From: a virus | Lineage: Duplodnaviria > Caudoviricetes | DNA length: 54,324 bases | IMG/VR virus record: IMGVR_UViG_3300037486_000437 | Coordinates: 1-54,324 of that record | Direction: 5' to 3' (one strand) | In this document: one piece after another, positions 771-47,078 of the stretch | Layout of the letters: every line of letters starts with the position of its first letter | How positions within the stretch are numbered: position 1 is the first letter of the stretch | Made by a program: the position numbers and the translations under genes | Notes under the pieces: model-generated | What the model was told of the DNA's origin: nothing | The model's database searches: none | What the model saw: only the letters and a program-made list of their open reading frames with translations

Positions 771-1840
<1,070 letters not shown>

Positions 1841-1843
1841 GCC

Positions 1844-3015: not shown

Positions 3016-3059
3016 GCCCCTCTGCCTCCTGTCCCCTGCCCCCTGACCCCTGCCCCCCG

Positions 3060-3485
3060 TCAAATCACCCGATCCACCCAGCGCAGCCGAAAGCCCAGCA
3101 GGCAGCGATACCAACCCGTCTCCGGCTCGCGCACATCCATCGGCCCGGTCGTCTGCCAGCAGTGCGCCAGGCGGCCTGTACCGCCCGTTACAGTGACATC
3201 CAGCGGCCCGAGGCCGCTCAGTGCCACCCGCACCGTGCGCGCCAGCGCCCGTGCGCTCGCCGGCGTCGGCCCGTAGCAGTGCAGCCATACGTCCGTGTCG
3301 AACAGCGCCGCCAGCGCATCGGCCGGCCCGCCATCCTCGAGCACCAGGATCGCCTGCGTCGCGCCCCGGTAGGTGTCCGGCAGCCCCGGCGGCCCGTACA
3401 GCCGCGTACTGGTCAGCGCCGCCACCGTCGAGCGCCCGGCCAGCAGCGCCAGCGTCGCCTCCAACGTGTCCAGCCCCGTGGTCAT
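3060..3485 (-). CDS. Tail terminator / tail completion protein
   Basis: 141 aa with 'TRLYG', 'VWLHCYG..A.ALA..V..AL' and 'EPETGWYR' pattern; position in the head-tail block. Confidence 0.65.
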   Translation of the reverse strand: MTTGLDTLEATLALLAGRSTVAALTSTRLYGPPGLPDTYRGATQAILVLEDGGPADALAALFDTDVWLHCYGPTPASARALARTVRVALSGLGPLDVTVTGGTGRLAHCWQTTGPMDVREPETGWYRCLLGFRLRWVDRVI

Positions 3486-3486
3486 C

Positions 3487-3981
3487 TCACAGCCCCTCCG
3501 GGATGCCCGGCTTGAACGTCGCGAATGAACGCATGAGCAGGTTCACCCGCCGGCCGGTATAGCCACCCGTGAAGAAAGCCCGACTCGTCGAGCGGGCAAT
3601 CTCCGCCATGTGCTGATTCGCCAACTTGGCCGCCGGCTCCAGCCACGGATAGCGCCAGAAGTTACCCGCCGGGCTGGTCCAGCCCACTTCCAAGTACGTG
3701 CCGTAATCCACATCGGTATAGACCTGCACCGTCTTGAGAAAGCCCTGCTCGACCCGCCTTGTCATAATACTGCGCGCCAGTTTGCCGGTGTCCCAGTGCT
3801 CCGGAAAGGGCGGTGGGCGATGCGGATGCGGCCCCGGTCCTTTGCCCGGCGTCACGTTGAGGATGGCGTACTTCTGCGCCAGCGCGCCCAACTGCTCGGC
3901 GAACGCCCACGCAAAGCCATCGCCCATCGCCTGCACCTCGCGCGTCCGCATGTTGACCTCCACCTTCGCTGTCATGCGCAT
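3487..3981 (-). CDS. HK97 gp10-like tail component
   Basis: DTGKLARSI, DVDYGTYLEVG and PWLEPA motifs. Confidence 0.8.
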   Translation of the reverse strand: MRMTAKVEVNMRTREVQAMGDGFAWAFAEQLGALAQKYAILNVTPGKGPGPHPHRPPPFPEHWDTGKLARSIMTRRVEQGFLKTVQVYTDVDYGTYLEVGWTSPAGNFWRYPWLEPAAKLANQHMAEIARSTSRAFFTGGYTGRRVNLLMRSFATFKPGIPEGL

Positions 3982-4223
3982 GGCGTCTTCTCCCGTTCTC
4001 CCACTCTCGTCCCCGCCTTGCCGGCGGCCAGTTGCCCAGACCGACCGCCGGGCTTCAAGGAGGGAGCGGACCTATGTCGTCAGTCCGTCCAGACAGCCGC
4101 CATCTATGACAACCCTCGTTTGATCTGTTCTGATCTCAGTTTCCCCATCATAGATCGCGGCTCGCTGCGCGCACTGACCCCTGACCCCTGACCCCTGCCT
4201 CCTGCCCCCTGCCCCCTGTCGCC

Positions 4224-4628
4224 TCACGCCGTCACCGCCGCCCGCAGCAGGCTCAGCTCCAACAGCCGGCCCAGACTCCCGCCGGCGTCGGTCACATGCT
4301 GGATATCGAACGGCCCGGCGTCGATGGTCGTGCCGTCCGCCCGTTTGACCGTCGTCACCCGGTACTCGGCGCTCGCGCCATACGTCGCCAGCTCGCTGCG
4401 CCAGGCCAGGAAGAGCGTATAGTACAGCACCGGCGCGCCTTCGTTCTGCCGGTTGACCTCCTCGCCGCCATACCCGCCGCGCGCGGGCTGCGCATCCAGC
4501 CGGCAGGCGACCCCCGTCGTCGCAGCCGCCCACGTCGTCGTGCCGTGGCCATAGCCGGCCGCGCTGCCCGCGCCCTCGGTGCGCTTTTGCAGCGTGCAGG
4601 TGTGGATCAACAGACTCGTAATGCTCAC
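4224..4628 (-). CDS. Head closure / head-tail adaptor
   Basis: 'LLIHTCTLQK..GYG..W....VACRL'; GTG start at 4628; gene order. Confidence 0.65.
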   Translation of the reverse strand: MSITSLLIHTCTLQKRTEGAGSAAGYGHGTTTWAAATTGVACRLDAQPARGGYGGEEVNRQNEGAPVLYYTLFLAWRSELATYGASAEYRVTTVKRADGTTIDAGPFDIQHVTDAGGSLGRLLELSLLRAAVTA

Positions 4629-8445: not shown

Positions 8446-9719
8446 CACTTCACCTCCGGTGCCGCAAGCACCTGCCACTCATTGTCCACCACGCTGCCGC
8501 GCGGCCCACCGCGGCCCGCATAGTTCGCGGCCGGCGCATCCGCCGGCCGCAGCGCGTCCGCCAGCTTGCGCAGCGTCGCCGTCGGCCAGCCGGCCAGCTC
8601 CTCGGGCGTAAACGTCGCCCGCCCGTTGGCCTGCAATTCGGCCAGCAGCCCCGCCCGCTCCGCATCCTGGTTGGTCTTCAGCCCCACCAGCGCCTCACGC
8701 AGCGCGGCCGCCCCGCCGAACTCCGTCACCATCGCCGCCAACTGGCCAGCCAGTGCGTTGACGGCTGGCTCCTCTGCCTGGACCGCAACCGCAGCCTCGC
8801 CTACCACAGCAGGCGCAACCTCAGCCTCGGCCTTTGCCTCGTCCATAACCTTACCTCCTGATCCAAGTGGCCCCGCCGCCTCGGCCGGCGTACTAGAGCC
8901 TATCGCCACCGAGCCGGCTGCGTTGGCCGTGGTACGGGCCACGCCTGGCGCAACGTCTCGATTGCTCCCATCGTCTGACTCCTGACTCCTGTCCCCTGAC
9001 TCCTGACTCCTGACCCCTGACCCCTGACCCCCGTCCCCTGCCTCCTGATCCCTGGCCCCTGACTCCTCATTCACCCGCGGCGCGCCGCAGCCATCCTCCC
9101 AACTACACGCGCCCTTGCTATGCGGCAGCAGCGCCAGATGATCGGGCCGCAGATTGCGCGCAATGCCCACATACGGCTTGCCGGCCAGCTCGCCCGGCGC
9201 GCTCTCGAAATCCCGGAAATAGGCCGTGCTCACCTCCACCGGCCCGCCCGCCTCCAGCAGCTCCAGCAGCCCGCCGTAGCCCATCGCCGTCATCTTGGCG
9301 CTGTCCAGCCACATCTCGCCGCGCAATTTGCCGTCAGGCCCCTGTACCGCCCCGTACAGCCGCCCCGCCAGCGTCCGCTCCAACACCGCCGGCGTGCGGG
9401 CCGAGATCGGCATCCCGCGCTCCCTGGGGTGCTCGATGGGGATCGGCACGTCGTTCCACAGCAGCACGCTGGCCGCCACCTCAGTTGCCGGCACCAGCTC
9501 GTCATTGAGCACGCCCGGATTCAGCGCCACCACCGGCACGACGAGGCGCTCCCGGCCATCCAGCATCTCCCGGCGCACGCAGCACGTCGCCTCCGCCAGG
9601 TTGATGCGCAGCTCGCCGGCGTGCCCTGGCGTGTCAGCCTGCCCCAGGCGTTGCGCTATGTCAAGCGTCGTGGTCGTCGTGTCGTCCATCGGCCTCATCC
9701 TCGCCGGCAAAACCGACAC
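8445..9719 (-). CDS. Prohead protease/scaffold (DUF2213-like)
   Basis: PIPIEHP, EVSTAY, RPDHLALLP..GACSW..GCG; acidic scaffold C-terminus. Start may be 9689-9698. Confidence 0.8.
   Translation of the reverse strand: MSVLPARMRPMDDTTTTTLDIAQRLGQADTPGHAGELRINLAEATCCVRREMLDGRERLVVPVVALNPGVLNDELVPATEVAASVLLWNDVPIPIEHPRERGMPISARTPAVLERTLAGRLYGAVQGPDGKLRGEMWLDSAKMTAMGYGGLLELLEAGGPVEVSTAYFRDFESAPGELAGKPYVGIARNLRPDHLALLPHSKGACSWEDGCGAPRVNEESGARDQEAGDGGQGSGVRSQESGDRSQESDDGSNRDVAPGVARTTANAAGSVAIGSSTPAEAAGPLGSGGKVMDEAKAEAEVAPAVVGEAAVAVQAEEPAVNALAGQLAAMVTEFGGAAALREALVGLKTNQDAERAGLLAELQANGRATFTPEELAGWPTATLRKLADALRPADAPAANYAGRGGPRGSVVDNEWQVLAAPEVK
8976..9066. repeat. In-frame heptamer tract in the protease-scaffold linker
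   Basis: About 13 units encoding ESGARDQEAGDGGQGSGVRSQESGDRSQES. Confidence 0.9.
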
Positions 9720-14000: not shown

Positions 14001-15686
<1,686 letters not shown>

Positions 15687-15690
<4 letters not shown>

Positions 15691-24002: not shown

Positions 24003-24233
24003 TCAAGTGGACGCCACGGTGACAACTTCAACGTTGACCTTGTCATCAACGAAACTGCGCGTCACCATTCGCAAATTCCCATCGATCAGGGCAAACTCAA
24101 ATGAGACAATTTCACCTTCACCAAACGCTATTTGAATATTGCTCCGATCAAAGTATACTACGGTCGGCACTTCATATCCCTTGCCTTCCAGCGTGATTTT
24201 GACTCTCTCTAGCGGGATTATTGCGCTGATCAT
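24003..24233 (-). CDS. Small AT-richer hypothetical protein downstream of attI-like site 2
   Basis: 76 aa; visibly lower GC than its neighbours. Confidence 0.55.
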   Translation of the reverse strand: MISAIIPLERVKITLEGKGYEVPTVVYFDRSNIQIAFGEGEIVSFEFALIDGNLRMVTRSFVDDKVNVEVVTVAST

Positions 24234-24256: not shown

Positions 24257-24302
24257 CCGGCCTAACTTGTATTTATGCGGAATCCTTCCGCCTAACACGC
24301 CC
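24257..24302 (-). mobile_element. attI-like recombination site, copy 2
   Basis: Minus strand ...ATTCCGCATAAA-TACAA-GTTAGGC; near-identical to 46152-46197. Confidence 0.6.
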
Positions 24303-24410
24303 CACGGGCGGCGATTGCTGTGATAGGCCGTCCCTGCCTACACCGGGATCGCTTGAGAACGGTTGCGGTGCAGGCAGAGCGGCTTTTAGCAAAGCGGGTT
24401 CTGCAGCCCG

Positions 24411-25445: not shown

Positions 25446-26236
25446 GTATCCTCTCCCTCTGACTCCTGATCCCTGTCCTCTGACTCCTGATCCCTGTCCT
25501 CTGACTCCTGATCCCTGTCCTCTGACTCCTGGCTCCGCAACCGCTGCACCCGCCAGTAGTCCTGGGTGTAATTCCCCAGATCCACATTCTCCGGCGCCGG
25601 CTCGTTGCGGCTGAGTTTCGCCGTCACAAATGCGCCCGGATTGTTGATCCCCTTGGCCGTCGCGCAATAGCGCGTCCAGGAGATGATCTCGATTTCCACC
25701 TCCGCCGGCGACAGCCCGTGCTCGTGCTCCGGGTCGGAGCCTAGCGCCGTCGCCACCGCCGCCTGGGCCCGCTCCCGCCGGCACCCCGTGCGCTGCACCA
25801 GGATCTCGGCGAGGCGCACGACCTCCGGGGCAAATTGGAGGTTTTTTTCCTCCAAATCGCCCCGGGGTAGTAGTAGTAGTTTAACCTTAACCTCTTCAGG
25901 AGAATGGTTAATTAAACTACTACTACTACTGTGAAATTGGAGGTTTTTTTCCTCCAAATCGCTGCCTGCGGCAAGCTGATCCGGCGTGAATAGCGGCAAC
26001 TGCACCGCCACGGCCGTCAGCCGCCACTGACCATAACCGCCGGGCGATTCCGCCAGCCGGATGCCGTCCGCCGCCAACGTGCGCAACGCCCGCCGCACCG
26101 TGGTGCGCTCGATCCCCGTGATCTCAGAGATTTCCAGCACCCCGGCCGGCCGCCGCAGCCAACGCAGCGCCAGCAAACACGCCAACGGCGCGCCCTTCAC
26201 CACCCGCAAAAAAACCGGCAGCGTCCAGGTGTCCAT
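25442..26236 (-). CDS. Replication initiator (wHTH)
   Basis: N-terminal wHTH 'EISEITGIERTTVRRALRTL', internal repeats, 'INNPGAFV' C-domain. Confidence 0.7.
   Translation of the reverse strand: MDTWTLPVFLRVVKGAPLACLLALRWLRRPAGVLEISEITGIERTTVRRALRTLAADGIRLAESPGGYGQWRLTAVAVQLPLFTPDQLAAGSDLEEKNLQFHSSSSSLINHSPEEVKVKLLLLPRGDLEEKNLQFAPEVVRLAEILVQRTGCRRERAQAAVATALGSDPEHEHGLSPAEVEIEIISWTRYCATAKGINNPGAFVTAKLSRNEPAPENVDLGNYTQDYWRVQRLRSQESEDRDQESEDRDQESEDRDQESEGEDT
25832..25962. other. Putative replication origin within the rep gene
   Basis: Two identical 29-bp direct repeats (25832-25860, 25934-25962) flank an 18-bp inverted repeat (25867-25884 / 25912-25929) in an AT-rich patch. Confidence 0.7.
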
Positions 26237-28065: not shown

Positions 28066-29621
28066 ACCGCCTCCAACAACTGCACCAGTTTCTCGGCTGC
28101 ATGGAGCAGCTCCACCAGCGCTCCCGTAGCGCTCGGATCGTCCTCCGCCTCGTATTCCGGCAGGCTTGCCGCATACGTCAGCAACCCGTCCCGCAACTCC
28201 ACCGCGTCCGCCCGTGCGCGCCGCAGCACCCCCAGCAGCCGCGCGCTCTCGGCGATCTCCGCCCTGTTCGGCCCTGGGCGCAGCGTGCTGCCGCCACCCG
28301 GCACAATCGTCATGGCCTCGGCCACCTTCCCGGCCGCCACTTTGGCCGACACCCGCCCCGGCGCGCCCGTTTCCCCGTTCCCCCGTTCTGCATTCTGCAT
28401 TCTTTCTTCTGCGTTCGGCTCCTCCTCCCCCAGCAACACCCGCACCGCCGCGAGCAACTCCCGCTGCGTCTCCGTGCTCACCACGGCGCCGTCGCCGGCG
28501 AACTTGCGCAGCGAGGCCCACAACGGCGCCCCGCCGTTCTGGCGCCGATGCGCCACCGCGTACAGAACGGTACGCCTACCGTCGGCGTCGTCCGCCAGCT
28601 CCGCATTCTCCACCAGCGCCGCCAGCCACGCCTCCACCGTCGCCACCAGCCCGCTCCCGTCCCCTGACCCCTGACCCCCGCCTCCTGACCCCTGACCCCT
28701 GACCCCTGACCCCTGACTCCCGCTCGCCCGCGCCTTCTCCGCACACTCCGGGCCGTAGCCCTTCGCCACCGAATCCGGGTCATCCAGCACCCGGTTACAA
28801 ATCCTGCAGCGCGTCTCCCGCCCCGTCCCCTCCGCCCGGCCCCGCTCCGGCTCCGGTCGCTCGGCCGGCTCTGCCTCGTCCTCTACCTCCTGACCCCTGA
28901 CCCCTGACTCCTGCTCCCCGTCCCCTGCCTCCTGTCTCCTGACCCCTGACCCCTGCTCCGCTGCCACCACCGCACACGCCTTCTTCAGGTCCCCCAGCAG
29001 CCCGCGCAGGCCCATGCTCTTGGCGTACTCCCCCAGCAGCAGCAGCCGATCCCGCCCCACGTCGTTCTGCAGCGCGATCTGCGCCAGGATGTGCACCCGC
29101 ACACTCGCCCCGAACTGCCCCAGCCACGACCGCACCGCCCCCTGGAGCTGCGCCGGCGTGGCGAACGCGTTCGGGTCCGCCGGCGTGCCGCCGATCGGCT
29201 TGTGTTGCAGGATCACCGTCTTGGCCGTGCTCACGCCGATCTTCTCGCCGGCCGCCGCCCGCTCGAGCGCTTCCTGCCGCGCTTCGTCGGGCGTGCCAGG
29301 GGAGGCGAGGAGGTAGGCCGCCGTCGTTGCGATATCCAACTGCGCGACATGTTGCACACTTGAGAACACGGAGTGGAGTTCGATTACCTTGTAGACCGTG
29401 CGGCGTCCGAGTTGCTTGGCATCAATCCAGCCATCGAAGCCGCCTCGTTTGTTGTGCCGGAGCATATCTCGAATCTCGGCGAACTTGCCTCCGGCATCAA
29501 TCATGTTGACGAGGCCTTGGCGCATGAGACCTTGCGCTTCCGAAAAGCGTTGCTCGATGACGATTCGCTGCTCGCTATCGTCGTACTCAAATGGTTTGAG
29601 AATATCTGTAGCCATCGTCAC
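28062..29621 (-). CDS. DUF3102-like N-terminus plus DUF6011-like Zn motif protein
   Basis: 'AGGKFAEIRDML....GFDGWI' and 'CRICNRVLDDPDSVAKGYGPEC'; two in-frame heptamer tracts. Confidence 0.65.
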   Translation of the reverse strand: MTMATDILKPFEYDDSEQRIVIEQRFSEAQGLMRQGLVNMIDAGGKFAEIRDMLRHNKRGGFDGWIDAKQLGRRTVYKVIELHSVFSSVQHVAQLDIATTAAYLLASPGTPDEARQEALERAAAGEKIGVSTAKTVILQHKPIGGTPADPNAFATPAQLQGAVRSWLGQFGASVRVHILAQIALQNDVGRDRLLLLGEYAKSMGLRGLLGDLKKACAVVAAEQGSGVRRQEAGDGEQESGVRGQEVEDEAEPAERPEPERGRAEGTGRETRCRICNRVLDDPDSVAKGYGPECAEKARASGSQGSGVRGQGSGGGGQGSGDGSGLVATVEAWLAALVENAELADDADGRRTVLYAVAHRRQNGGAPLWASLRKFAGDGAVVSTETQRELLAAVRVLLGEEEPNAEERMQNAERGNGETGAPGRVSAKVAAGKVAEAMTIVPGGGSTLRPGPNRAEIAESARLLGVLRRARADAVELRDGLLTYAASLPEYEAEDDPSATGALVELLHAAEKLVQLLEAV

Positions 29622-29851
29622 GCCTCCTCGACCGCCTCGACAACCGCCGGCTGCTCACTCAGTTCGCCAAACACCGCTTGCGTCTCTTCCGGCCCGAAGG
29701 CCAGGAAGAAGGCTCCGATAAAATTCTCGTTGATCTCGCGCTTGCCACTGAGCATCAACGAGACCAGGGCCTGGCTAACATTCATCTGCCGCGCCAGCTC
29801 TACCTGACTCATCCGGTCGCGTTGCTCCATCCACTCTTGCAGCCGTTTCAT
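29618..29851 (-). CDS. cro: Cro-like XRE HTH regulator
   Basis: 'MSQVELARQMNVSQALVSLMLSGKR'; divergent from the repressor. Confidence 0.8.
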   Translation of the reverse strand: MKRLQEWMEQRDRMSQVELARQMNVSQALVSLMLSGKREINENFIGAFFLAFGPEETQAVFGELSEQPAVVEAVEEA

Positions 29852-29884
29852 CCTTCCTCCTGTCAACCATTATCAACTGTATGG

Positions 29885-29913
29885 AGTATAGCATAACTCT
29901 TTACGATTGTCAA
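29885..29913 (-). promoter_or_regulatory. Early lytic promoter
   Basis: TTGACA-17 nt-TATACT with TG extension; TTTACGA repeated nearby (candidate operators). Confidence 0.8.
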
Positions 29914-29980
29914 TACGGAAATTTACGAATATAAAGAAATGTTCGCGCCAGTGTGGACAAGGCGTGATATAATCGAGGTC

Positions 29981-30565
29981 GTGAACGAAGGCGTGCGGAG
30001 AGACCGGCTTGAGGCACTGATGGCGGCGCGTGGCTATGGCCCGGGTGAACTGGCCTACCAGGCGGGCGTCAGCTATAACTACATCTACAAGATCCGGCTA
30101 GGGCAGGCGCCCCATATTTCAGCCGCCCAGGTCGCCAAGCTGGCCGCCGCGCTGCGCACCAGTCCCGGCTATCTCATGGGTTCGACCGACGATCCGGCGC
30201 CACAACCGGTGCCCTCGACGCAACTTGTCGTCAACGAAGATCGAGCAGATTACGCGCCCCTCACCCGCGAGGTCGCGCAACTGGCCGCACGCCTCAACCG
30301 CCTGCCGGCCGGCGCCCGCGCCAAGATCATCGCCGCCTTTGCGGCTGTGGTGGAGCTGACCGAAGGTCAACCCCTCGCCGTAGCTGAGGCGCTCAACGCA
30401 CCGGCGGGGGAGGATCAGGCCGCGACCGACGCGCGTCTGGCCGATCAGCGCCGGCGGCTCTTTCGTCTGTTGGATCAGTTGACGGACGAGGAAGTAGAGG
30501 AGTGGACCCGCCGCATTCAGGCCGCAGCCGCCGCAGAACAACGCGCAGCAGCTCAGACAGGATAG
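29981..30565 (+). CDS. cI: CI-like XRE repressor lacking an S24 peptidase domain; probably leaderless
   Basis: HTH 'ELAYQAGVSYNYIYKI..G...KLAAAL..S..YLMG'; TGnTATAAT at 29965-29973 lies 7 nt before GTG 29981. Confidence 0.8.
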   Translation: MNEGVRRDRLEALMAARGYGPGELAYQAGVSYNYIYKIRLGQAPHISAAQVAKLAAALRTSPGYLMGSTDDPAPQPVPSTQLVVNEDRADYAPLTREVAQLAARLNRLPAGARAKIIAAFAAVVELTEGQPLAVAEALNAPAGEDQAATDARLADQRRRLFRLLDQLTDEEVEEWTRRIQAAAAAEQRAAAQTG

Positions 30566-31772: not shown

Positions 31773-31801
31773 ATACTACTGCAAACGCACCGTTACGTCA
31801 A
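31773..31801 (-). promoter_or_regulatory. Promoter of a ~200-nt transcript
   Basis: TTGACG-17 nt-TAGTAT. Confidence 0.6.
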
Positions 31802-31908
31802 GTGATACGTGTTCACACTATAGACATTATGTCGTTATGGGGTCTTGACTCGACATAAGGGAGCGGGCCGGCTGGGTACTGGCCCGCGCAGGGGAGAGAA
31901 CAACACAC

Positions 31909-33510
31909 ATGCCACGCCGCAAACGCTCGGCCGCGGCCGCGGCGCGCCGGCCACTCAGCGCCGGCGCCGCCATCTACGTCTACGCGCGCGACTCCGGCGG
32001 CGCCCGCCAGGAAGCGAGCGTCGGCGATCAGCTCGCCGATCTGCGCGCCCATGCCGCCGCGCAAGGCTGGGTCATTCTGGCTGAGTTCAACGACGCCGCC
32101 CGCTCCGGCACCGCCACCGCCCACCGTGACGCCTTCCTGGCCATGATCGAACGCTGCCACGAGCACCCGCCGCCCGTACAAGCCGTGCTCGTCTGGCATC
32201 CCGCCCGCTTTGGCCGCGACGAACTCGACCGCCAATACTTTCGCTCCGACCTGCGTCGCCGCGGCATCGAGCTGCTCTCGCTCACCGAAGCCGTGCCCGA
32301 AGGCCCCTTCGCCACCATCATCGAATCGGTGCTCGATCTCAAAGATCGGCTGTTTGTCGATGACATGAGCCGCCAGGTGCGCCGGGGCCTGCGCGCCCTG
32401 GTCGCCGCGGGCTACGCCCCCGGCGGCACGCCGCCTACCGGTTACGTCGCCGAGCGTGTCCAGCGCGGTACGCACCGCGACGGCACCCCGCGCATGGCGG
32501 CGCGCTGGCTGCCGGATCCCGAAGTAGCGCCGCGCGTCAGCGAGGCGTTTCGGCTGCTCGCCGCCGGCCGCACCTATCAGGAGATCGCCGCCATCTGCCG
32601 GCTGCCGCTGCACAGCAAAGCCAGCTATTGGAGCATGTTCCGTAACCGCACCTATCTGGGCATCCTGAAGTTGGGTGAGGAAGAGTTTCCCGACGCGCTG
32701 CCGGCGCTGGTGGACCCCGCCACCTGGGCCGCCTGTCAGGCGCAAATGGGCGACCGCCGCGCGGCCGCCGCCAAAGCGAGGCGCACCGTGAGTGACTACC
32801 TGCTCTCCGGACTGCTCTACTGTAGCCAGTGCGGCAGTCCCCTGATCGGCCAGACCGACCACCGCAACGAGGCCCGAGGCGGCCACGGCTGGCGCAACTA
32901 CCGCTGCAACGGCGTGCTCCCTGATGGCAGCCATTGCCCGGCGCGCCGCGTCGGCGCCGACCGCATTGAGCGCGCCGTGGTCAACCTGGTGCTCGATCAG
33001 GTGCTCACCCCGGCCACGATGCGCGAACTGTTGGCCGAACTGCGCCGCCGCCTGACCGCCGACGATCTCGCTGGCCGGCTGGCGCGCCTGGTCACGGCGC
33101 GCAAACGCCTCGCCACGCAGATCGCCCGGCTGTTGGATAGTCTGGAACAGGGCGGCGGGCCACAGGTGCAGGCCCGGCTCACGCAACGACAAGGGGAATT
33201 GGCGGCGCTGACTGCCGAACATGCCGCGCTGGCGCGCCGGCAACAGATCACGCAACTAGAGATCACCGAGGAAGATCTACAGGCCGTGCTGCTGGCCATT
33301 CGCAGCCAACTGCAGGCGGAGGACATACCGGCGGCACGCGCCGCGCTCGCCTCGTTCGTCGCACGTGTCGTCGTCAATACCGAGCGGGGGGAGGCGGCCG
33401 CCACCAACTTCGAGCTGCAATTCCACCCGCCCGCGGCGGTGTTACAGGTCTACGGGGAGGTGCCCCCAAGGGGCTACCGACTGCTAACCTGTCTCAGCGC
33501 CCCCTACTGA
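31909..33510 (+). CDS. int: Large serine recombinase (integrase)
   Basis: YARDS catalytic Ser, 'DAARSG', 'RFGR', recombinase domain, 'LLSGLLYCSQCG' Zn ribbon, coiled coil. Confidence 0.95.
   Translation: MPRRKRSAAAAARRPLSAGAAIYVYARDSGGARQEASVGDQLADLRAHAAAQGWVILAEFNDAARSGTATAHRDAFLAMIERCHEHPPPVQAVLVWHPARFGRDELDRQYFRSDLRRRGIELLSLTEAVPEGPFATIIESVLDLKDRLFVDDMSRQVRRGLRALVAAGYAPGGTPPTGYVAERVQRGTHRDGTPRMAARWLPDPEVAPRVSEAFRLLAAGRTYQEIAAICRLPLHSKASYWSMFRNRTYLGILKLGEEEFPDALPALVDPATWAACQAQMGDRRAAAAKARRTVSDYLLSGLLYCSQCGSPLIGQTDHRNEARGGHGWRNYRCNGVLPDGSHCPARRVGADRIERAVVNLVLDQVLTPATMRELLAELRRRLTADDLAGRLARLVTARKRLATQIARLLDSLEQGGGPQVQARLTQRQGELAALTAEHAALARRQQITQLEITEEDLQAVLLAIRSQLQAEDIPAARAALASFVARVVVNTERGEAAATNFELQFHPPAAVLQVYGEVPPRGYRLLTCLSAPY
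33441..33488. mobile_element. Putative attP (core GGTGCCCCCAAGGGG, tRNA-Glu-like 3' end)
   Basis: Core 33459-33473 is the reverse complement of a tRNA T-stem plus acceptor end; flanked by imperfect inverted repeats. Confidence 0.55.
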
Positions 33511-37200: not shown

Positions 37201-40200
37201 ACGGCGCTACGTCGGCGCTGGCCGCCCGGAAATACAATTTCTTATCCGCCCGGATCTGCCATTCCCAGTCCGTGCCGGCGTCCTCCGCAGCCAGCGCCTT
37301 CAGGCGCTCCAGCACGCTGGTGAGCTGCTCGCCGTTGGCCGTGAAGGTCGTCAGCGTCGGCCCGGCCGAGACATACGTCGCGGTGTTGAACTCCGTCAGG
37401 CCCGCGGCCGTGAAAGCGTCGGCGATGATGTCCTCGGCCGTGGTGTTGGTCCAGGTGCCCCGGATCAGCGGCGCCCGCCCCAGCCGTGTGCTGTAGCTCT
37501 CGCAGGTCAGCGCCCAGGCGCGATGGTTGCCATTCGCCACCAGCGTCGGCTGCGCCTTGACGACATAGCCGCCGAACTGCGCTACGCCGTCGATCTTGAA
37601 GATCACCACCTGCCACTCCGCCGCCGTGAAGGCGTTGCTCACGTCCTCGATCGTGAAGCGCAGCGTATCCACCTGGCTGCCGGCCACATCCACCCATTGC
37701 AGGCTGCCCCGCTGCAGCAGCGTGATGCGCTCCGTACCGGCGACGGTCAGCGAGAACGTCAACACCTGACTGCTGACAGGCACCGACGGCGAGACCGACG
37801 CCGACGGGCTGCGGCTGCTGGACGGGCTGCGCGAGCTTGACGGTGAGCGCGACGGTGAGCGCGACGGGCTGGTCGATGGTGAAATTGAGCTTGACGGTGA
37901 GCGCGACGGTGAAATCGAGCTTGACGGTGAGCGCGACGGTGAAATCGAGCTTGACGGTGAGCGCGACGGTGAAATCGACGGGCTGGTCGATGGTGAAATT
38001 GAGCTTGACGGCGAGCGCGACGGTGAAGTCGAGCTTGACGGGCTGGTCGAGCTCGACGGTGAGCGCGACGGCGAAATTGAGCTCGACGGTGAAACTGACG
38101 GTGACTCGCTCGCCGACGGGCTGGTCGATGGTGAAATTGAGCTTGACGGTGACTCGCTCGCCGACGGGCTGGTCGATGGTGAGCTTGAGCTTGACGGGCT
38201 AGTCGATGGTGAAACTGAGCTTGACGGTGACTCGCTCGCCGACGGGCTGGTCGACGGTGAAACTGAGCTTGACGGTGACTCGCTCGCCGACGGGCTGGTC
38301 GATGGTGAAATTGAGCTTGACGGGCTGGTCGATGGTGAAACTGAGCTTGACGGTGACTCGCTCGCCGACGGGCTGGTCGATGGTGAAACTGAGCTTGACG
38401 GTGACTCGCTCGCCGACGGGCTGGTCGATGGTGAAACTGAGCTTGACGGTGACTCGCTCGCCGACGGGCTGGTCGATGGTGAAATTGAGCTTGACGGTGA
38501 CTCGCTCGCCGACGGGCTGGTCGATGGTGAAATTGAGCTTGACGGGCTGGTCGATGGTGAAATTGAGCTTGACGGCAATTGCGACGGTGAAACTGAGCTT
38601 GACGGTGACTCGCTCGCCGACGGGCTGGTCGATGGTGAGCTTGAGCTTGACGGTGACTCGCTCGCCGACGGGCTGGTCGATGGTGAAATTGAGCTTGACG
38701 GTGACTCGCTCGCCGACGGGCTGGTCGACGGTGAAACTGAGCTTGAAGGTGAGCGCGACGGTGAAATCGACGGGCTGGTCGACGGTGAAACTGAGCTTGA
38801 AGGTGAGCGGCTCGGTGAAATCGACGGGCTGGTCGACGGTGAAACTGAGCTTGAAGGTGAGCGGCTCGGTGAAATTGACGGGCTGGTCGATGGTGAAATT
38901 GAGCTTGACGGTGACTCGCTCGGTGAAATTGACGGGCTGGTCGATGGTGAAACTGAGCTTGACGGTGACTCGCTCGGTGAAATTGACGGGCTGGTCGATG
39001 GTGAAACTGAGCTTGACGGTGACTCGCTCGGTGAAATTGACGGGCTGGTCGATGGTGAAATTGAGCTTGAAGGTGAGCGCGACGGTGAAATCGACGGGCT
39101 GGTCGACGGTGAAACTGAGCTTGACGGTGACTCGCTCGGTGAAATTGACGGGCTGGTCGATGGTGAAACTGAGCTTGACGGCGACCGGCTCGGTGAAATT
39201 GACGGGCTGGTCGATGGTGAAACTGAGCTTGACGGCGACCGGCTCGGTGAAATTGACGGGCTGGCCGATGGACTGGCCGATGGCGACACACTACTCGATG
39301 GTTCCACCGCCGCGTGCGTGATCGCCAGTAGCGGCCGATAGCCCGCCGTGTCATTGTCTTGCGTGCAGATGTAGATATATTCGGCGCCCGTCGGGGTGGT
39401 GCCAGCTTTGTCGCGAGACGAGCGCAGTCCATAGTATGTGTTGCCGGTTTTACTCGGCCAGGCGGTCGCGAGATTGCCAGAGGTGTATTGCGTATCGGTG
39501 CTGATGCCGCTCGTGCTGCGCCAAATGTTGTCGTCGGCGGCGGCGGATAGGCAGTTGTCGTAAGCCGCCTCCTGGTTGCCTGAGCTAAGCGGGTTCTGCG
39601 CCGACCAATCCTGTTTGACAATCTGGACGTTGAAATCGGTATCGGACACGTCAGTGGCGCAGGTCAGTTTGAGATTGACCTGCGAGATGACATCGGTGTC
39701 TGGAATGGCGCTGGTGCTGAAAACCAGCAGTCCGCGATAGACCCCATAGTATCCGATATAGGTTTGTCCTACGGCTGCGGAGGTGTAGTAGTTATCATAG
39801 GAAAGGCAGTCGCTACGCGCGGTAGAATAGATAAGATCGTGGTTGTATATATACGCATCGGCGCTGCCCGCCGCGTAGTCGGGATCAATCGTCACCGGGT
39901 AGACAGCATCGGCCAGCCAACTGACCGGCACGCCAGTGTAGAGATACTGGATGTTGCCGACCGTGCGCGCATAGCGTTTGCACTCAGCGCGGCTGCCTGG
40001 CCCCACACGGCTATCGTGCGCGCTTGGCGGCGGGAAACGCATCCCGGAGGTCTCAAATTCGTCCAGCCAGCCGTCCGGGAAACTGCTGCCCGTGATCTGC
40101 GTTTCGAGCACCAGCCAGTCAGACAGCTTGACGCCGGGGATGCTGGGCTTCTCGGCAATGACGATTTCCTCTCGCAAACCCTTCTCAGTCAGCGTCAACA

Positions 40201-40728: not shown

Positions 40729-42390
40729 TCATGCGGCCCGCAGCGGCGCCAGCAGCTCCGCCAGTTGCGGCCAGCCGGGCACGTGCGCGCTGTCCGCCAC
40801 GTGCCAGTATTTCGGTTGACGGATGAAACGCTCCGTGCTGAAGCGCTTCGTCGTCAGGTTGCCCCGGTGCGCCAGATCCACATTCGGCGCGGCCGGCTGG
40901 AAGACCTCGAAATCGTACCAGTTCTGCCACTTCACCCGGCCGTGCGTCATCGGCTCGAAGCCCATCCAATAGCCGAAGTTTTTTTGCTCGATCAGTGCAT
41001 TGCGCTCCCGGAAGTGCGTCAACAGCGGCGCCCGATACGCCACCAGCCCTGCCAGCGGCGTCAGGTCGTAATGCACCGCCAGCCCGTCACTCAGGCGCAC
41101 CTGCCACCAGTGGCCGTTGTACCAGAACGTCTGGCTATCCGGCGGCGTGAATTGGAAGTGCTCCGGCGCATACAGCACGTCGTGCTCACAGAAGAAGATC
41201 ACATCCTCGGTCATGGCCGCCAGCCCCGCCTCGATCTGCCGGAACAGCGTGCGATAGCCCCGCTCCTCCGCCAGTACGATGTTGCGCCCGAAGTCCGTCG
41301 GCTTCAGCGTTACGGACGTGATCGGCAGCCCCGCCGCCGCGATGTACCCCCGGCACAAGCGGGCCAGCCGCATGTTGAGCGCGTTGTCGGTGTAGTAGAG
41401 GATGCCTTTCGTCGGCTCGCCCACAGCCATGACCGCCGGCGCTGCCTCAGCCTCAACCTCAACCTTAGCCTCAGTCTTAGCCTCGCCGGTCTCCGCTGGC
41501 GTCGTCACCCAACCCGGCGGCTGAAACTTGTCGATCAGCCACTGGAATGGATAGATTGCGCCGGGCCAGCCGTCACGCTGGAAGAGCGCTCGGGACCGCT
41601 CCCGATTCTCATCTACCTCGCGCTGCGGCAGCTCATAGGGAAAGCCGAAATCGCCGCCCTGCGTCCTGAAAAGATGGGCATACCAGGTCCTCCGGTTCAC
41701 CAGCACCCGGCCTCCGCTCAGCCACGTCTTACACGCCACTTCGACGCCCTGCTGCCCCCACGAATGGAACTCCTCCGAACAGATGTCCAACGCCCAATAC
41801 TTCGCCCGTGTCACCATGAAACAACTGCCCTGGATGCTCAGCGTCTCGGTCAGGTCGCCGGCTTGCACCCGCCCGAACTCGTTCCAGTATTGGAAGTGCA
41901 ACGTCTCATCGAAGCGGTACGCTGTGCTTTGCGGATTGCGCTTGGGGATCCACACCACATCCTGCACCGTCGCCGCCCCGCACTCCGTGCACGGTCCGCT
42001 CGGCCCCTGGTAGCGGCGGTGGCCGGCCGGGCAGACCCAGTCGAAGGCGTGCAGGTTGCGCATCACCGGCACCATCGTTATGTCGTCCTGCATCAGCGCC
42101 AACAGCTTGCGGTCAAAGCCCTGCTCGAAGGCGCAATGCGCATCGACCTTCATCACGTACCGCGCTGTGGTCAGCCGGCAGAGCTGGTTCGTCATCGCCC
42201 GTTGCCCGATGGACTCCGCCACGTGCAGCAGCGTCACCCGAGGATGATCCTCGATCGGCGGCTCGGCCCAGGCGCCGTCGAGGCCGGCCAGGATCTCGGT
42301 ATCGGCCTCGCTGTGCTCCAAAATGTCTTGGATCGTGCGCGCCAGGAATTGTTCGTTGCGTGCGGGGATCAGAATTGCAAGCTCACTCAT
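40729..42390 (-). CDS. Two-domain glycosyltransferase (ppGalNAc-T-like GT-A plus a second GT-A domain)
   Basis: IPARNE, KVDAHC, WGQQGVEVACKTWLSGG..WYAHLFR; second domain FFCEHDVLY. Confidence 0.85.
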   Translation of the reverse strand: MSELAILIPARNEQFLARTIQDILEHSEADTEILAGLDGAWAEPPIEDHPRVTLLHVAESIGQRAMTNQLCRLTTARYVMKVDAHCAFEQGFDRKLLALMQDDITMVPVMRNLHAFDWVCPAGHRRYQGPSGPCTECGAATVQDVVWIPKRNPQSTAYRFDETLHFQYWNEFGRVQAGDLTETLSIQGSCFMVTRAKYWALDICSEEFHSWGQQGVEVACKTWLSGGRVLVNRRTWYAHLFRTQGGDFGFPYELPQREVDENRERSRALFQRDGWPGAIYPFQWLIDKFQPPGWVTTPAETGEAKTEAKVEVEAEAAPAVMAVGEPTKGILYYTDNALNMRLARLCRGYIAAAGLPITSVTLKPTDFGRNIVLAEERGYRTLFRQIEAGLAAMTEDVIFFCEHDVLYAPEHFQFTPPDSQTFWYNGHWWQVRLSDGLAVHYDLTPLAGLVAYRAPLLTHFRERNALIEQKNFGYWMGFEPMTHGRVKWQNWYDFEVFQPAAPNVDLAHRGNLTTKRFSTERFIRQPKYWHVADSAHVPGWPQLAELLAPLRAA

Positions 42391-43165
42391 AGCTCGCCTC
42401 GCTGCCCAATGACGACACCGGGAACGCGCCCGGCACCAGCTCATCCCCCTTCTGCGCCCGCTCCGCCCGCTGGTGCAGATCGTGAAATAACCCGAATGGG
42501 TTAAGCGCGCCGTTGACGTTGAACCGCCCCAGTGGGAACAGATAGATGTCCGGCCCGGTGTGCAGCGTCTCGCCCCGGTGCGCTTTGTTCCACTTGGCGT
42601 TGAAATAGCAATCATCCCCCTGCCGGCTGGCCGGGTGATAGCCCCGCTCGCACGTCGCCCGGTCATAGCCGCCCAGCGCCAGGAAGTCGCGTCGCGGCAT
42701 GGCCCAGGTGTTGCCGTGCACCGAAGCGTCCAGCCTCTCCCCCACATAGCCCCACTCCGCCAGCGTCGCCCGCTCCTGCCGCAAAGCGCCCTGCGCGTCC
42801 AGGATGCCGATCTGCCGGCGGAAGATCATTTTAGGACCCTGATAATTGCACGCCGCCTCGATGGCCGCCCGACTCAAGATGTGGTCGATGTCCGTCATCA
42901 GCAGAAGCTCGCCGCGCGCCGCCTCCGCCCCCAGGTTGCGCGCTAAGCCCTGCGTCCACGCCAACTGGTTGCCGGTGTGCAGCACGCGCAGCCCCGGCAG
43001 CCGGTAATCCCGCACGTCGAGCGCCGGGCGGCTGCCGTCGTCCACGAAGATGAATTCCACGTCGGCGTCCAGGCCCATGCGCGCCAACCACAGCGCCTGG
43101 CGCCGCACGATCTCGTGGCTGTTGTAGATCGCAATCACCACCGAAAGCAACGGCTCACCGTACAT
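42383..43165 (-). CDS. Glycosyltransferase family 2 (GT7-like C-terminus)
   Basis: SVVIAIYN, VDDGS, ARNLG, TDIDH, LGGYD, GDD. Confidence 0.9.
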   Translation of the reverse strand: MYGEPLLSVVIAIYNSHEIVRRQALWLARMGLDADVEFIFVDDGSRPALDVRDYRLPGLRVLHTGNQLAWTQGLARNLGAEAARGELLLMTDIDHILSRAAIEAACNYQGPKMIFRRQIGILDAQGALRQERATLAEWGYVGERLDASVHGNTWAMPRRDFLALGGYDRATCERGYHPASRQGDDCYFNAKWNKAHRGETLHTGPDIYLFPLGRFNVNGALNPFGLFHDLHQRAERAQKGDELVPGAFPVSSLGSEASYE

Positions 43166-43667
43166 CGGCCAGCTCCCGGAAATTGCTCACCACGCTCGAG
43201 CTCGGATACAGCCCCGTGTAATCGTAGCGGTATTTGAACAGCGGCCAGATCCGGCTATACCCGTATTGCGCATCCCACGCCGGCTCGGTGTCGTGGATCA
43301 CGATCAGATCGGCCAGATAACGCAGCCGGGCGATCTCCACCGGCCGGCGCCGATTCGGGCTATGATCGACGAACGCCAGGCCCCAGTGATACTCAGTCAG
43401 ATCCACCGCGTCCCACGCTTCGCACTTGCGGATGTGATGATACTCGCTCTGCCAGCGTTGCGCCCGCTCGCACCAGCCACCCCGGCTCTCATACGAATAC
43501 ACGTGCCGCTGGCTGACCGTCGCCAGCCAGTGCAGCAGCAGCGTCGAAAAGTAGCCCGTGCCCAGCTCCAGCACCGGCCCCTGGCTTTTGTCGAAACAGC
43601 GCGTCAGCAGCGGGATATGGCTCGCCACCATCACGCCATCGGTCACATGCTCAGCGGGGTCTGCCAC
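43155..43667 (-). CDS. Class I SAM-dependent (glycan) methyltransferase
   Basis: VLELGTGYFST, AFVDH, IVIHDT; GGAGG RBS. Confidence 0.75.
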   Translation of the reverse strand: MADPAEHVTDGVMVASHIPLLTRCFDKSQGPVLELGTGYFSTLLLHWLATVSQRHVYSYESRGGWCERAQRWQSEYHHIRKCEAWDAVDLTEYHWGLAFVDHSPNRRRPVEIARLRYLADLIVIHDTEPAWDAQYGYSRIWPLFKYRYDYTGLYPSSSVVSNFRELADVR

Positions 43668-44347
43668 AATGCCTCCATCTGGGCCGCCGTGCCCCAATAC
43701 GGAATCTCGGTCGCCTGAAACGCCCCGAGCTGCTTGCGGTTGCCGGTATACTGGTAGCCGATGGCCGCCTCGTGAAACACCACCACATGCGGCTCCGGCG
43801 CCTCGAACGCGACCAGCCGCCGCGGTGTCACGCCCAGGCGCTGCTCGTGCCGCCCCACCTCGCTCCAGTGCCCCAGGTTGATCTGCGCAGCGTCCGGGTA
43901 TTTGGCGAAACGCTCCTCCAGCGCCGCCTGCAGCAGCGCCGTCGGCGCAATGCCGCCCGTGGTTGGCCACTTGACCGCCGGATGGTTGAAGCACGCCGGC
44001 CACCACGTGAACCAGGCCCACTTGTGCATGTCGTAGCCGATGGCGTCGGCCGGCGGCCGCCAGCAGGTGAAGTGGCTCGGCGGATACAGGATGTCATCCT
44101 CCGCCAGCGCCACGTATGGCGTGCGCACCGCCCGCACGCCGATCAACTGCTGCCGATAGATGTTGATGTACTGCTGCCCGATCTCGCCGACGCAGATGTT
44201 CTCGCCGAAGCCCGGCAGCGGCTTCTGTGACACGCTCACCAGCGGCAGATCGCCAATGGCCCCCAAGAGCTTCTGGCGCACCAGCGCCCCGAACGGCTCT
44301 CGGATCACGTTGGCCGTGTAGTAAAGCACCGTGAGATCAGGCGTCAT
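43643..44347 (-). CDS. GT-A fold glycosyltransferase
   Basis: VLYYTAN, ALAEDDILYPPSHF; resembles the second domain of 40729-42390. Confidence 0.75.
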   Translation of the reverse strand: MTPDLTVLYYTANVIREPFGALVRQKLLGAIGDLPLVSVSQKPLPGFGENICVGEIGQQYINIYRQQLIGVRAVRTPYVALAEDDILYPPSHFTCWRPPADAIGYDMHKWAWFTWWPACFNHPAVKWPTTGGIAPTALLQAALEERFAKYPDAAQINLGHWSEVGRHEQRLGVTPRRLVAFEAPEPHVVVFHEAAIGYQYTGNRKQLGAFQATEIPYWGTAAQMEALWQTPLSM

Positions 44348-44361
44348 CTACCCATTTCTCC

Positions 44362-44481
44362 ATCTAACGTCTGAAATAAGCTGCCCGTCACACTTCCAGC
44401 AATACGGGCTGCGGCCCATCCGGGGAATCAACTTCGCTACGGGCTGCCCCTGTTCGGGTCAGCTTCATTTCTTGGTTATCC
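44362..44481 (-). mobile_element. attC: attC site A (120 bp)
   Basis: Minus strand R'' GGATAAC-5 nt-L'' AATGAAGC ... L' GCTTATT-6 nt-R' GTTAGAT; two extrahelical bases. Confidence 0.85.
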
Positions 44482-45212
44482 GTCAGAGGAGGTTGGAGCC
44501 GAGCCTTCCGGCACCGTTCCTCAGCAATCTCGAAGTAATCCCGCCTGAGTTCGATCCCCGTCCCGCTGCGTCCCGTCTTGATGCAGGCGACCAGCGTCGT
44601 GCCGCTGCCCATTGTGTTGTCAAGCACGGCGTCGCCTTCGTTCGTGTACGTGCGAAGCAGGTATTCCAGCAGGGCGACCGGCTTCTGTGTTGGATGTTCG
44701 GGAATCATGACCGTCGAAAACGGAACTATTGAAGTCGGGTAGTAGTCGGCGTTTTCGGTGGTTTGACGATCCGCAAACTTTCCGTAAACTTGGGCGGGGC
44801 CAGTCCTGGCCCCGCCCCGGCTGTGCAGCGTGCCCCGTTTCATCACCGGGTTGTAGGTGTGTCCATTGGGTGCGAACACGCAAATATCCTCATGCTTCTT
44901 CAATGGCTTACGCTTGCAATCCAGATGGCCCGTGGCCCGTGACTTCTCCCAAACCCAAACATACTTGAACCACGCCAGGTTACTGCATACCAGTAGGCTG
45001 GTGAACGGCTGCGAGCCGAACAGCACGATAGCGCCCCTGGGCTTGATCAGCCGCTTGTACTCCGCCCATAGCGGCTCGAATGGGATGACCACATCCCAGG
45101 AGCACGCCGTCGTGCCGTAGGGCAAGTCAGCACAGATCATGTCAAAGCTCGCGCTCGGCAAGGTTGGCATGACTTGCAGACAATTCCCATGAATCAGTGT
45201 CTCGTTACTCAC
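44388..45212 (-). CDS. Beta-class N6-A/N4-C DNA methyltransferase (cassette 1)
   Basis: ADLPY, HPTQKP, VLDNTMGSGTT; GTG 45212 chosen (alternative start 45254). Confidence 0.9.
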   Translation of the reverse strand: MSNETLIHGNCLQVMPTLPSASFDMICADLPYGTTACSWDVVIPFEPLWAEYKRLIKPRGAIVLFGSQPFTSLLVCSNLAWFKYVWVWEKSRATGHLDCKRKPLKKHEDICVFAPNGHTYNPVMKRGTLHSRGGARTGPAQVYGKFADRQTTENADYYPTSIVPFSTVMIPEHPTQKPVALLEYLLRTYTNEGDAVLDNTMGSGTTLVACIKTGRSGTGIELRRDYFEIAEERCRKARLQPPLTDNQEMKLTRTGAARSEVDSPDGPQPVLLEV

Positions 45213-45224
45213 GTTGCCTCTGCC

Positions 45225-45344
45225 GGATAACGGTTGAAATAAGCTGCCCGTCACCCAACCGGCAAGACGAACAGCGGCCCATCCGGGGAGTCAACTTCGC
45301 TGCGAGAGAACCCACTTCGGGTCAGCTTCATTTCGTTGTTAGAT
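45225..45344 (-). mobile_element. attC: attC site B (120 bp)
   Basis: Minus strand R'' ATCTAAC-5 nt-AATGAAGC ... GCTTATT-6 nt-R' GTTATCC; arms identical to attC A. Confidence 0.85.
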
Positions 45345-46141
45345 CGGAGCGGCAATTGAAGCGCAGTTCCAGCAATACGACCCCTGGCATTCTCGAAGAA
45401 CCTGCGATTGATTTCGCACCCGATGAAATCCCTGCCAGTGCGAACGGCTGCAACTCCGGTAGACCCCGACCCCATGAAACAATCCAGCACAACGGGAATC
45501 CTGGCGCCATCTTTCAGGCAAGTGAACATCTGGATAAGACGCTGCGGTATCTCGACCGGGAACGCTGCCGGATGCCCGTTCTGCCGGGCGGGAACGTTCC
45601 ACCAAACGTCTTTGGTCTCATCCAGGAAGGGCACGTCCTTCGTGCCCCGCCTGCCCGTGCCGTTGTCGTAGTAGTATCTGCTTTTGCTGTGAAGTAGGAT
45701 CATTTCACAGGTTGGGCGAACATAGATATTGTTATCAGACCCCATGGCGTAGGACGTTGCTATCGGCCCGGTATCCTCTTTGCCCTTTACCCAGACAATC
45801 GCTTCTCGTGGCAAGAATCCAAGTCGCTCACACATAAGCTCGACCCGAACGGCGATCTTTTCAACCCGTCTCCCGATCTGTTCGATGGAGTCACGGCGTA
45901 ACCGAACCTCCTTCGGAACATTGATGGCAATGACCCCGCCGTCTCGCAGAAGGCGATAGCTCAGCGTCAAGAATCGCTCCATCTCGGCGTAGTAGGTCGG
46001 CCAGTCGGTGTCATCGGAAAGCTCTCCGTAGTCCATGCCAACGTTGTAGCGCGGCGATGTTACGATCAGGTCGACGCTGGCTTCTGGCAGGCGTGCCATG
46101 ACATCGAAAGCATCCTCGTTGTACAGTGTCACGTTACCCAC
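45251..46141 (-). CDS. Beta-class (probably N4-C) DNA methyltransferase (cassette 2)
   Basis: TSPRY (SPPY variant), HPAAFP, VLDCFMGSGSTG. Confidence 0.88.
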   Translation of the reverse strand: MGNVTLYNEDAFDVMARLPEASVDLIVTSPRYNVGMDYGELSDDTDWPTYYAEMERFLTLSYRLLRDGGVIAINVPKEVRLRRDSIEQIGRRVEKIAVRVELMCERLGFLPREAIVWVKGKEDTGPIATSYAMGSDNNIYVRPTCEMILLHSKSRYYYDNGTGRRGTKDVPFLDETKDVWWNVPARQNGHPAAFPVEIPQRLIQMFTCLKDGARIPVVLDCFMGSGSTGVAAVRTGRDFIGCEINRRFFENARGRIAGTALQLPLRSNNEMKLTRSGFSRSEVDSPDGPLFVLPVG

Positions 46142-46151
46142 GATCTAAGCT

Positions 46152-46197
46152 CCGGTCTAACTTGTATTTATGCGGAATGGATTCCGCATAAACGCCC
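46152..46197 (-). mobile_element. attI-like site heading the cassette array
   Basis: Minus strand GCATAAA-TACAA-GTTAGAC (compare attI1 CCCTAAA-ACAAA-GTTAGGC) plus a 12-bp inverted repeat. Confidence 0.7.
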
Positions 46198-46216
46198 GTA
46201 GAGCGTCAAAAGCGGA

Positions 46217-47077: not shown

Positions 47078-47078
47078 C

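Follow-up and report, generated by a model that had tools for sequence, protein, structure and literature searches.

Integron parts in phages and the phage described here

Bacteriophages have been found to carry integrons, attC and attI sites, CALINs and methyltransferase cassettes, and some phage attC clusters occur without an integrase (Qi et al. 2023, PMC9892861). As that report presents them, the first description of integron parts in phages dates from 2023, for the most part as complete integrons or as attC clusters on their own in Proteobacteria phages (PMC9892861). The attI sites of its temperate Proteobacteria phages accompany intI; in contrast, the probable Chloroflexota phage described here has two sites of probable attI type that stand alone, without an integrase, in two separate operons, an arrangement that appears to be new relative to that account (PMC9892861). 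A CALIN is a group of attC sites, at least two in number, without an integron integrase, defined by covariance-model matches, and the study that gives this definition also records integrons in Chloroflexi (Cury et al. 2016, PMC4889954). The present phage resembles a CALIN in that a pair of attC-like modules falls within 1 kb and intI is absent from the vicinity; it differs in that the definition, as worded in that study, has no attI-type leader (PMC4889954).

Two other systems are comparable in layout. The PeSLs of T4-type phages are repeated intergenic stem-loops that lie over a -10 box, have a Shine-Dalgarno sequence on their 3' side and stand before ORFans; shuffling has been proposed for them, and their authors liken them to integrons (PMC2839356, PMC4122927). 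All of these features recall the element described below. In contrast, PeSLs as portrayed in those papers have consensus sigma-70 promoters and many motifs per genome, with no GTT/inverse-core ends and no link to an integrase (PMC2839356, PMC4122927). Morons of temperate phages are similar in that genes of foreign composition lie between native genes behind a 5' control element of their own. A moron classically has its own promoter and terminator, whereas the blocks in this phage have no terminator behind them and no canonical promoter was called for them.

The window, that is, the whole stretch of 54,324 nucleotides that was analysed, is a complete virus record with a 127-nt overlap of its ends. 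The minus strand carries nearly all of its genes. The virus is a temperate siphophage, with large terminase, portal and tape measure genes, and its lysogeny genes include a large serine integrase on the plus strand (31909-33510) and a divergent CI-like/Cro-like pair. The genetic switch (29618-30565) has the CI-like repressor on the plus strand and the Cro-like HTH on the minus strand, with canonical promoters face to face. An AT-rich inverted-repeat stretch beside the serine integrase (31791-31858) is a candidate attP. Canonical sigma-70-type promoters exist in the phage, for example an early leftward one (29913-29885) and a predicted late one (19143-19115). At the latter (19143-18998, minus strand) the near-consensus sequence TTGACA-17-CATAAT is followed about 80 nt on by a terminator with a 16-bp stem and a T-run, ahead of the packaging genes, a layout that resembles a late promoter with a terminator read through by an antiterminator. 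No sigma factor genes were found in the phage, and a search for a T7-type RNA polymerase gave no match in a comparison where the control likewise matched nowhere.

All four genomes matched by the terminase are Chloroflexota MAGs, and the host probably belongs to this phylum. The phage has a genome GC of 0.66, and GC3 in its core genes is 0.85-0.89. The 54 terminase relatives have almost none of its early genes, and DNA relatives of the region around the first site were not found among cultured phages.

The repeated element and its counterpart beside an integron integrase

The element occurs twice. Site 1 (24257-24302, minus strand) was recognized by reading of the sequence and by homology to a bacterial attI region; its sister copy, site 2 (46152-46197, minus strand), was recognized by reading, by its fold and by comparison of junctions. 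An earlier note on this DNA had pointed to closely matching 46-nt strings in one orientation, and both were located exactly, 21,895 nt apart and in the same orientation. Without gaps 36 of 46 positions are identical; with gaps the alignment spans 47 columns, of which 41 match, 4 are mismatched and 2 are gaps. The core common to the two, ATTCCGCATAAATACAAGTTAG (minus strand, 22 nt), is identical. A 21-mer of this core occurs twice in the window with up to 3 mismatches allowed, and none of 100 dinucleotide shuffles had a match. The likeness ends at the edges of the element, where the flanks are unrelated (15/60 and 17/60 identical).

Read in the transcribed direction, the element consists of GGGCGT, a hairpin, ATACAA, GTTAGRC and CCGGA. 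In site 1 the hairpin (24273-24295) is imperfect, with arms TTAGGCGGAA and TTCCGCATAA around a loop of 3 nt and a 10-bp stem with one mismatch; the AT-rich spacer ATACAA leads to the core GTTAGGC (24266-24260) and then CCGGA. In site 2 it is a perfect 11+11-nt palindrome around CC (46167-46192), an 11-bp stem with a DNA fold z of -4.0, and the core is GTTAGAC (46161-46155). The CCGGAG of site 2 is the Shine-Dalgarno sequence of the first methyltransferase gene. The two copies differ in the loop and at one stem position, and the arms remain complementary. A core of the form GTTRRRY, which an attI site has where its first cassette begins, is present in both copies, in itself a weak criterion since 71 such 7-mers occur in the window on both strands. 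There is one GANTC site in each copy, at the hairpin top and on opposite arms (24285-24289 and 46180-46184), about what chance would give (an estimated 1 in 5); GANTC is the target of some methyltransferases in the family found behind site 2.

The copies stand at the head of different gene blocks. Site 1 lies in the early leftward block, ahead of replication-type genes, and 26 nt upstream of the ATG of an ORF of 76 amino acids. Between it and the 457-aa gene there is a long stable stem-loop (24320..24390, minus strand), which was detected by its fold (-56.1 kcal/mol and z -4.2 for a 116-nt stretch) and lacks a U-run. A canonical terminator was not called at this stem-loop, which is possibly an insulator or terminator. 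Upstream of the same 457-aa gene, an AT-rich intergenic stretch (25866-25963, minus strand) includes an inverted repeat, long and made of (GTA)n / (TAC)n, and a small hairpin that encloses an A-run. Site 2 belongs to the late block, where it separates a glycosyltransferase gene from two DNA methyltransferase genes. In this region a cluster of glycosyltransferase-like and methyltransferase-like genes (40729-47089) is flanked by the tape measure gene and by the gene of a 2106-aa repeat protein, which suggests virion or DNA modification functions inside the tail operon.

The closest counterpart of the element is found in an Anaerolineae MAG, G004, that also carries a terminase-related fragment. 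One of the four MAGs with terminase relatives, it encodes an integron integrase (intI), which scored 428.5 bits on the integron-integrase model (cut-off 265). About 230 nt upstream of this intI, and reading away from it towards the attC sites, is the sequence TTAGGCGGAAGAAATTCCGTATAATTACATG|TTGGGC (attI region at about 9742-9866 of contig C1). It is identical to site 1 in 31 of 37 columns (manual count) and ends in the GTT core of the array, a position between a bona fide intI and its array. The region was chosen by its location and not by a motif search, and for this reason a chance match is not credible. Like the phage sites, it has a hairpin, an AT-rich spacer with a -10-like box, here a perfect TATAAT, and a GTT core, in the same orientation to the ORFs that follow. 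Another copy of the hairpin lies a further 66 nt upstream and is similar to the left arm of site 2.

There are also differences. In G004 the intI is some 230 nt away, the hairpins are two and in tandem, the core is GTTGGGC, and the attC sites (123-127 nt) have GCCCAAC...GTTGGGC ends. The phage, in contrast, has two dispersed single copies, the core GTTAGRC, a different attC family and no adjacent intI. In the whole 54-kb record there is no match to the tyrosine recombinase family PF00589 at E<=1, and the sole recombinase is the large serine integrase. G004 is not the host itself, since its GC is 0.50 compared to 0.66 for the phage. It is moreover a MAG, with its intI on a 10.9-kb contig that is cut at the gene, a caveat to the comparison.

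The integron of G004 is complete except that its intI is cut by the contig end (contig C1, 9700-10020 and 4463-8192), with at least three attC sites and the two tandem hairpin boxes. A promoter, TTGACT-17-TATACT, points at the array, and the translation of the first ORF after attI, read by eye, has the appearance of a zinc-binding protein of transposase type.

The element belongs to a narrow family. IntI scored over the cut-off in 14 of 151 Chloroflexota genomes in our own sample, and of the 17 intI loci compared one, that of G004, has the element; a pattern search did not find it at the 16 other Chloroflexota intI loci, nor at 75 further loci (with the locus of phage record G410, described below, excluded). 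An exact match to L' was absent from four related MAGs, and one attC-like site with a related L' box was detected in MAG G001. The idea in the earlier note that the motif may define a family of sites holds on a small scale, for one other phage record and one bacterial integron, but not for the other intI loci (0/16). A narrow family is consistent with attI sites being specific for their own integrase, yet it limits the claim.

The same note had proposed a search of viral metagenomes with the motif; exact-word scans of viral and metagenome contigs yielded no homologous matches, with 0 in the viral contigs. These scans missed G410 because its spacer differs. The lone further viral match falls within the coding sequence of an AT-rich phage gene and is due to chance. 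A 19-mer was found in four metagenome-contig stretches, all within ORFs and with unrelated flanks, and eight loci from a search with a 24-nt pattern looked like chance matches.

Cassette-like genes behind the copies

An attC site consists of an inverse core, RYYYAAC, and a core, GTTRRRY, separated by imperfect L'' and L' boxes with bulged bases; it is 57-141 nt long and lies at the 3' end of an ORF. In integron arrays, crossover at G|TT leaves the cassette's own core remnant at its start.

Two genes that may be such cassettes follow site 2. The ORF of cassette 1 (45251..46141, minus strand) is a DNA methyltransferase (PF01555, E 1.2e-35) with GC3 0.66. Its attC-like module (45218..45352, minus strand), assigned by box pairing, module alignment and junctions, has the inverse core ATCTAAC (45344-45338) and an L''-like box, GAAATGAAGCTG (45334-45323), within the ORF; past the stop codon come an L'-like box, GGGCAGCTTATTTCA (45249-45235), and the junction G|TTATCC (45231-45225). 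The ORF of cassette 2 (44388..45254, minus strand) is a second DNA methyltransferase (PF01555, E 3.4e-25) with GC3 0.70, and its translation probably begins at a GTG near 45212, beyond the junction. Its module (44355..44489, minus strand), for which the fold adds to the same kinds of evidence, has an inverse box, CCTCTGACGGATAAC, ending at 44475, L''-like and L'-like boxes at 44471-44460 and 44386-44372, and the junction G|TTAGAT (44368-44362). GGAG and the ATG of a native gene (43643-44347) follow; no relatives of that gene were found. The stretch after cassette 2, G|TTAGATGGAG and the native gene start, has the form expected if the right half of site 2 had been displaced, and GTTAGA-N0-3-GGAG occurs three times where 0.14 occurrences are expected.

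The two methyltransferases align solely over their last 104 amino acids. Their 3' ends have a common module of about 135 nt that extends about 35 nt beyond the stop codon and aligns with a hairpin of G410. The box after the stop codon, CAGCTTATTTC, is complementary, apart from one bulged G, to GAAATGAAGCTG, which lies about 100 nt upstream. These modules are candidate attC sites. The ATCTAAC of cassette 1 fits RYYYAAC; the GGATAAC of cassette 2 and the junction GTTATCC depart from the consensus. The fold of the cassette 2 module is moderately better than shuffled sequences (z -2.4 and -2.5), and that of cassette 1 is no better (z 0.16 and 0.19). The modules also overlap about 35 codons of the ORFs, so part of the likeness between them could be protein conservation. 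A scan for RYYYAAC...GTTRRRY pairs 50-150 nt apart gave nothing relevant in the window; it missed the modules because the junction cores are composite.

Cleaner attC-like hairpins occur in G410, the sole phage record with the gene found behind site 1. It has one copy of the element, GCGGAA-AGT-TTCCGC-ATATATGTT-GTTAGAC-GGAGG, then an ORF of 69 amino acids and then an attC-like hairpin. This hairpin is 108 nt long and near-perfect (GTCTAAC-AA-18 nt...18 nt-ACC-GTTAGAC), with a DNA fold of -39.8 kcal/mol (z -6.8), and is made of two inverted copies of the motif that also follows both methyltransferase stop codons in the window. In all, G410 has five attC-like hairpins of 93-119 nt, four of them just downstream of a tyrosine recombinase gene. 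Its recombinases are Xer-like, with 31-48 bits on the integron-integrase model (cut-off 265). The four hairpins (1147-4070 in reversed coordinates) are accompanied by small ORFs and lie in the same orientation as the Xer-like gene upstream; this region may be an integron-like array served by a recombinase other than IntI.

Junctions were compared by taking the reverse complement of the 15 nt that end at the inverse core and scoring it against the cassette's own 5' edge and against the following edge. For the two cassettes in the window the scores out of 15 were 12 vs 9 and 14 vs 6, own edge first, and for those of G410 they were 13 vs 8, 10 vs 6, 11 vs 10 and 7 vs 6. The own 5' edge is favoured in all six, clearly in four, as expected of a composite R'. 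The junctions in the window therefore have the pattern of integron arrays, that is, composite cores.

The gene behind site 1 presents a different picture. The 76-aa ORF (24003..24233, minus strand) has a foreign composition, an all-beta model (pLDDT 68) and no known family. The earlier note had called it AT-richer, which its GC of 0.46 and GC3 of 0.52 bear out, since the genome as a whole has a GC of 0.66. By this measure both copies are followed by foreign genes (GC3 0.52, 0.66 and 0.70), and the genes next to them are native (0.85 and 0.89). Three homologues with 67-77% identity were found among metagenome proteins; a structure search gave no fold match at E<=0.001 and no atlas lead. About 30 nt separate the stop codon of the ORF from the likely start of the next gene. 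The earlier note had seen no attC there, and the present analysis agrees: neither an attC-like structure nor a box complementary to GTTAGGCCGGAC was found behind the ORF. Two attC-like modules follow the element at site 2, one follows it in G410 and none at site 1. The 76-aa ORF could be a cassette stripped of its attC or the original flank of site 1; the earlier note's inference of a site that is empty or has an eroded cassette is a possible alternative.

Origin of the sites and competing explanations

It is fairly probable, judged from sequence comparison, that site 1, as the second copy of the element, is an orphan site of attI type, descended from a Chloroflexota (Anaerolineae-type) integron docking site and now resident in a temperate phage without an integron integrase of its own. 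The label attI-like, first applied in the earlier note, gains support from the intI-adjacent homology in G004, the cassettes at site 2 and the cassette of G410. Such a site would comprise, from 5' to 3', a short conserved box, a hairpin or palindrome with a stem that is kept and a loop that varies, a spacer rich in A and T that contains a -10-like box, then G|TTAGRC as the core at which the cassette would start, and a ribosome-binding site with the first ORF. An integron integrase encoded by the host would recombine the folded attC of circular cassettes with the phage sites at G|TT. Accessory genes could in this way be loaded into two differently timed operons, the early leftward one at site 1, ahead of the replication genes, and the late one at site 2. 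The cassettes would be transcribed by read-through, perhaps with a contribution of the embedded -10-like box, and the 76-aa ORF may once have been a cassette.

A further proposal is that the phage keeps two attI sites without an integrase so that a host integrase can load host cassettes, one site serving as an early slot and the other as a late or lysogenic slot; the present load would be the two methyltransferases, and the 76-aa ORF a remnant. This is possible, and is offered tentatively. If true, site-specific recombination would carry cassettes from integrons to phages and also back, in a phylum for which no studies of either are known, and this phage, G410 and the integron of G004 would offer matched attI, attC and IntI parts. 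The orphan attI reading provides a route by which a virus could borrow the gene-capture machinery of its host: a docking site without integrase, present twice in one phage of an uncultured lineage, with a bacterial counterpart and a junction pattern of past recombination. It also defines a set of sequences (two attI-type sites, two attC-like ends and one IntI), and it explains the presence of anti-restriction-type genes, the DNA methyltransferases, in the middle of a tail-gene operon.

The element might instead be a mobile regulatory cassette like the PeSLs, in which a stem-loop and promoter are placed before new ORFs and shuffled by homologous recombination, and the likeness to attI would reflect a common regulatory module. 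This is considered unlikely. A stem-loop over a -10-like box followed by a Shine-Dalgarno sequence and a start codon is the commonest PeSL layout as those papers describe it (PMC2839356, PMC4122927), and this layout, with an ORFan behind it, is present here, as are foreign ORFs behind both copies. The part CATAAAT-A-CAAGTT of the element is similar to the -10 and start region of the predicted late promoter (19143-19115). On the minus strand the string CATAA-N0-4-CAAGTT is found three times, once at each site and once at the -10 of that promoter, against 0.03 expected, and none of 100 shuffles reached three; the perfect TATAAT of the G004 copy falls at the same place. Homologous recombination in the conserved L'-R' block of 25-30 nt would suffice to produce the composite junctions with no integrase, a weakness of the orphan attI reading. 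However, a consensus sigma-70 -35/-10 is lacking: no -35 box and no minus-strand sigma-70-type promoter was called at either site, and only the -10-like CATAAAT is present. There are two copies only, whereas PeSLs occur as many repeated motifs per genome, and regulation alone does not predict inverse and direct GTT cores, bulged L boxes or a homologue adjacent to intI.

A purely cis-regulatory role, either as the site of a regulator or as an RNA element in antitermination or processing that would co-regulate replication genes and methyltransferases, is distinctly improbable. Consistent with it, the perfect 11+11-nt palindrome of site 2 overlaps the -10-like box, the stem is kept where the loop differs, and both copies head blocks of genes whose co-expression would be sensible (replication and DNA methylation). 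Against it, the arms of one copy are spaced 1 nt differently from those of the other, an awkward fit for a dimeric DNA-binding protein; a similar palindrome was not found at the CI/Cro switch or the late promoter, and no Rfam family matched in the window. Site 1 also lies behind the strong hairpin and not before it, the wrong order for a nut-type site. An operator or hairpin alone would leave the intI-adjacent homology and the cassette junctions unexplained.

It is most improbable that the element is another recombination or mimicry site, whether an attP of the serine integrase that the phage encodes, a Xer/dif-like site or a solitary mimic of a CRISPR repeat: an attP would be a single site next to the integrase gene, whereas the element has two copies at distances of 7.6 kb and 12.6 kb from that gene (31909-33510), which is adjoined by the AT-rich inverted-repeat region instead, and the arms of the element are 2-4 nt apart, presumably unlike the dif layout. 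A hairpin with a conserved 3' tail, as in the element, is also typical of CRISPR repeats. A sample of the phylum, 401 Chloroflexota genomes, was compared with the 24-nt pattern at up to 3 mismatches, and 38 of these genomes had 40 matches in all; since there were at most two per genome and a reversed-pattern control was similar, no CRISPR repeat array is indicated.

Other candidates were set aside. An intrinsic terminator, a GC-rich stem with a U-run, was not called at either site, and the real terminator-like sites of the phage have T-runs. Readings of the element as an ECF-sigma, sigma-54 or LexA-box motif were made by eye from consensus motifs and were dropped as post-hoc.

Other repeats are found in this genome. 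Tandem units of 7 nt (GGGGTCA, GGAGTCA, GGGGGCA and GGAGACA) form at least 17 minus-strand tracts, for example at 187-242, 1783-1846, 4170-4225, 8985-9040, 15340-15391, 15628-15688 and 53665-53710. They occur at gene junctions and also inside long predicted ORFs, on the coding strand, and because the period is 7 nt they would give one Gly/Ser/Gln/Arg-rich peptide in all three frames. The tracts are absent from four related MAG loci, and their G4-N3 spacing fits a G-quadruplex motif. In-frame tandem repeats are also present at 37800-39360 and 48300-51420, in the 2106-aa protein (periods of 48 and 54 nt) and in the 1990-aa tape measure protein (periods of 204, 213 and 156 nt).
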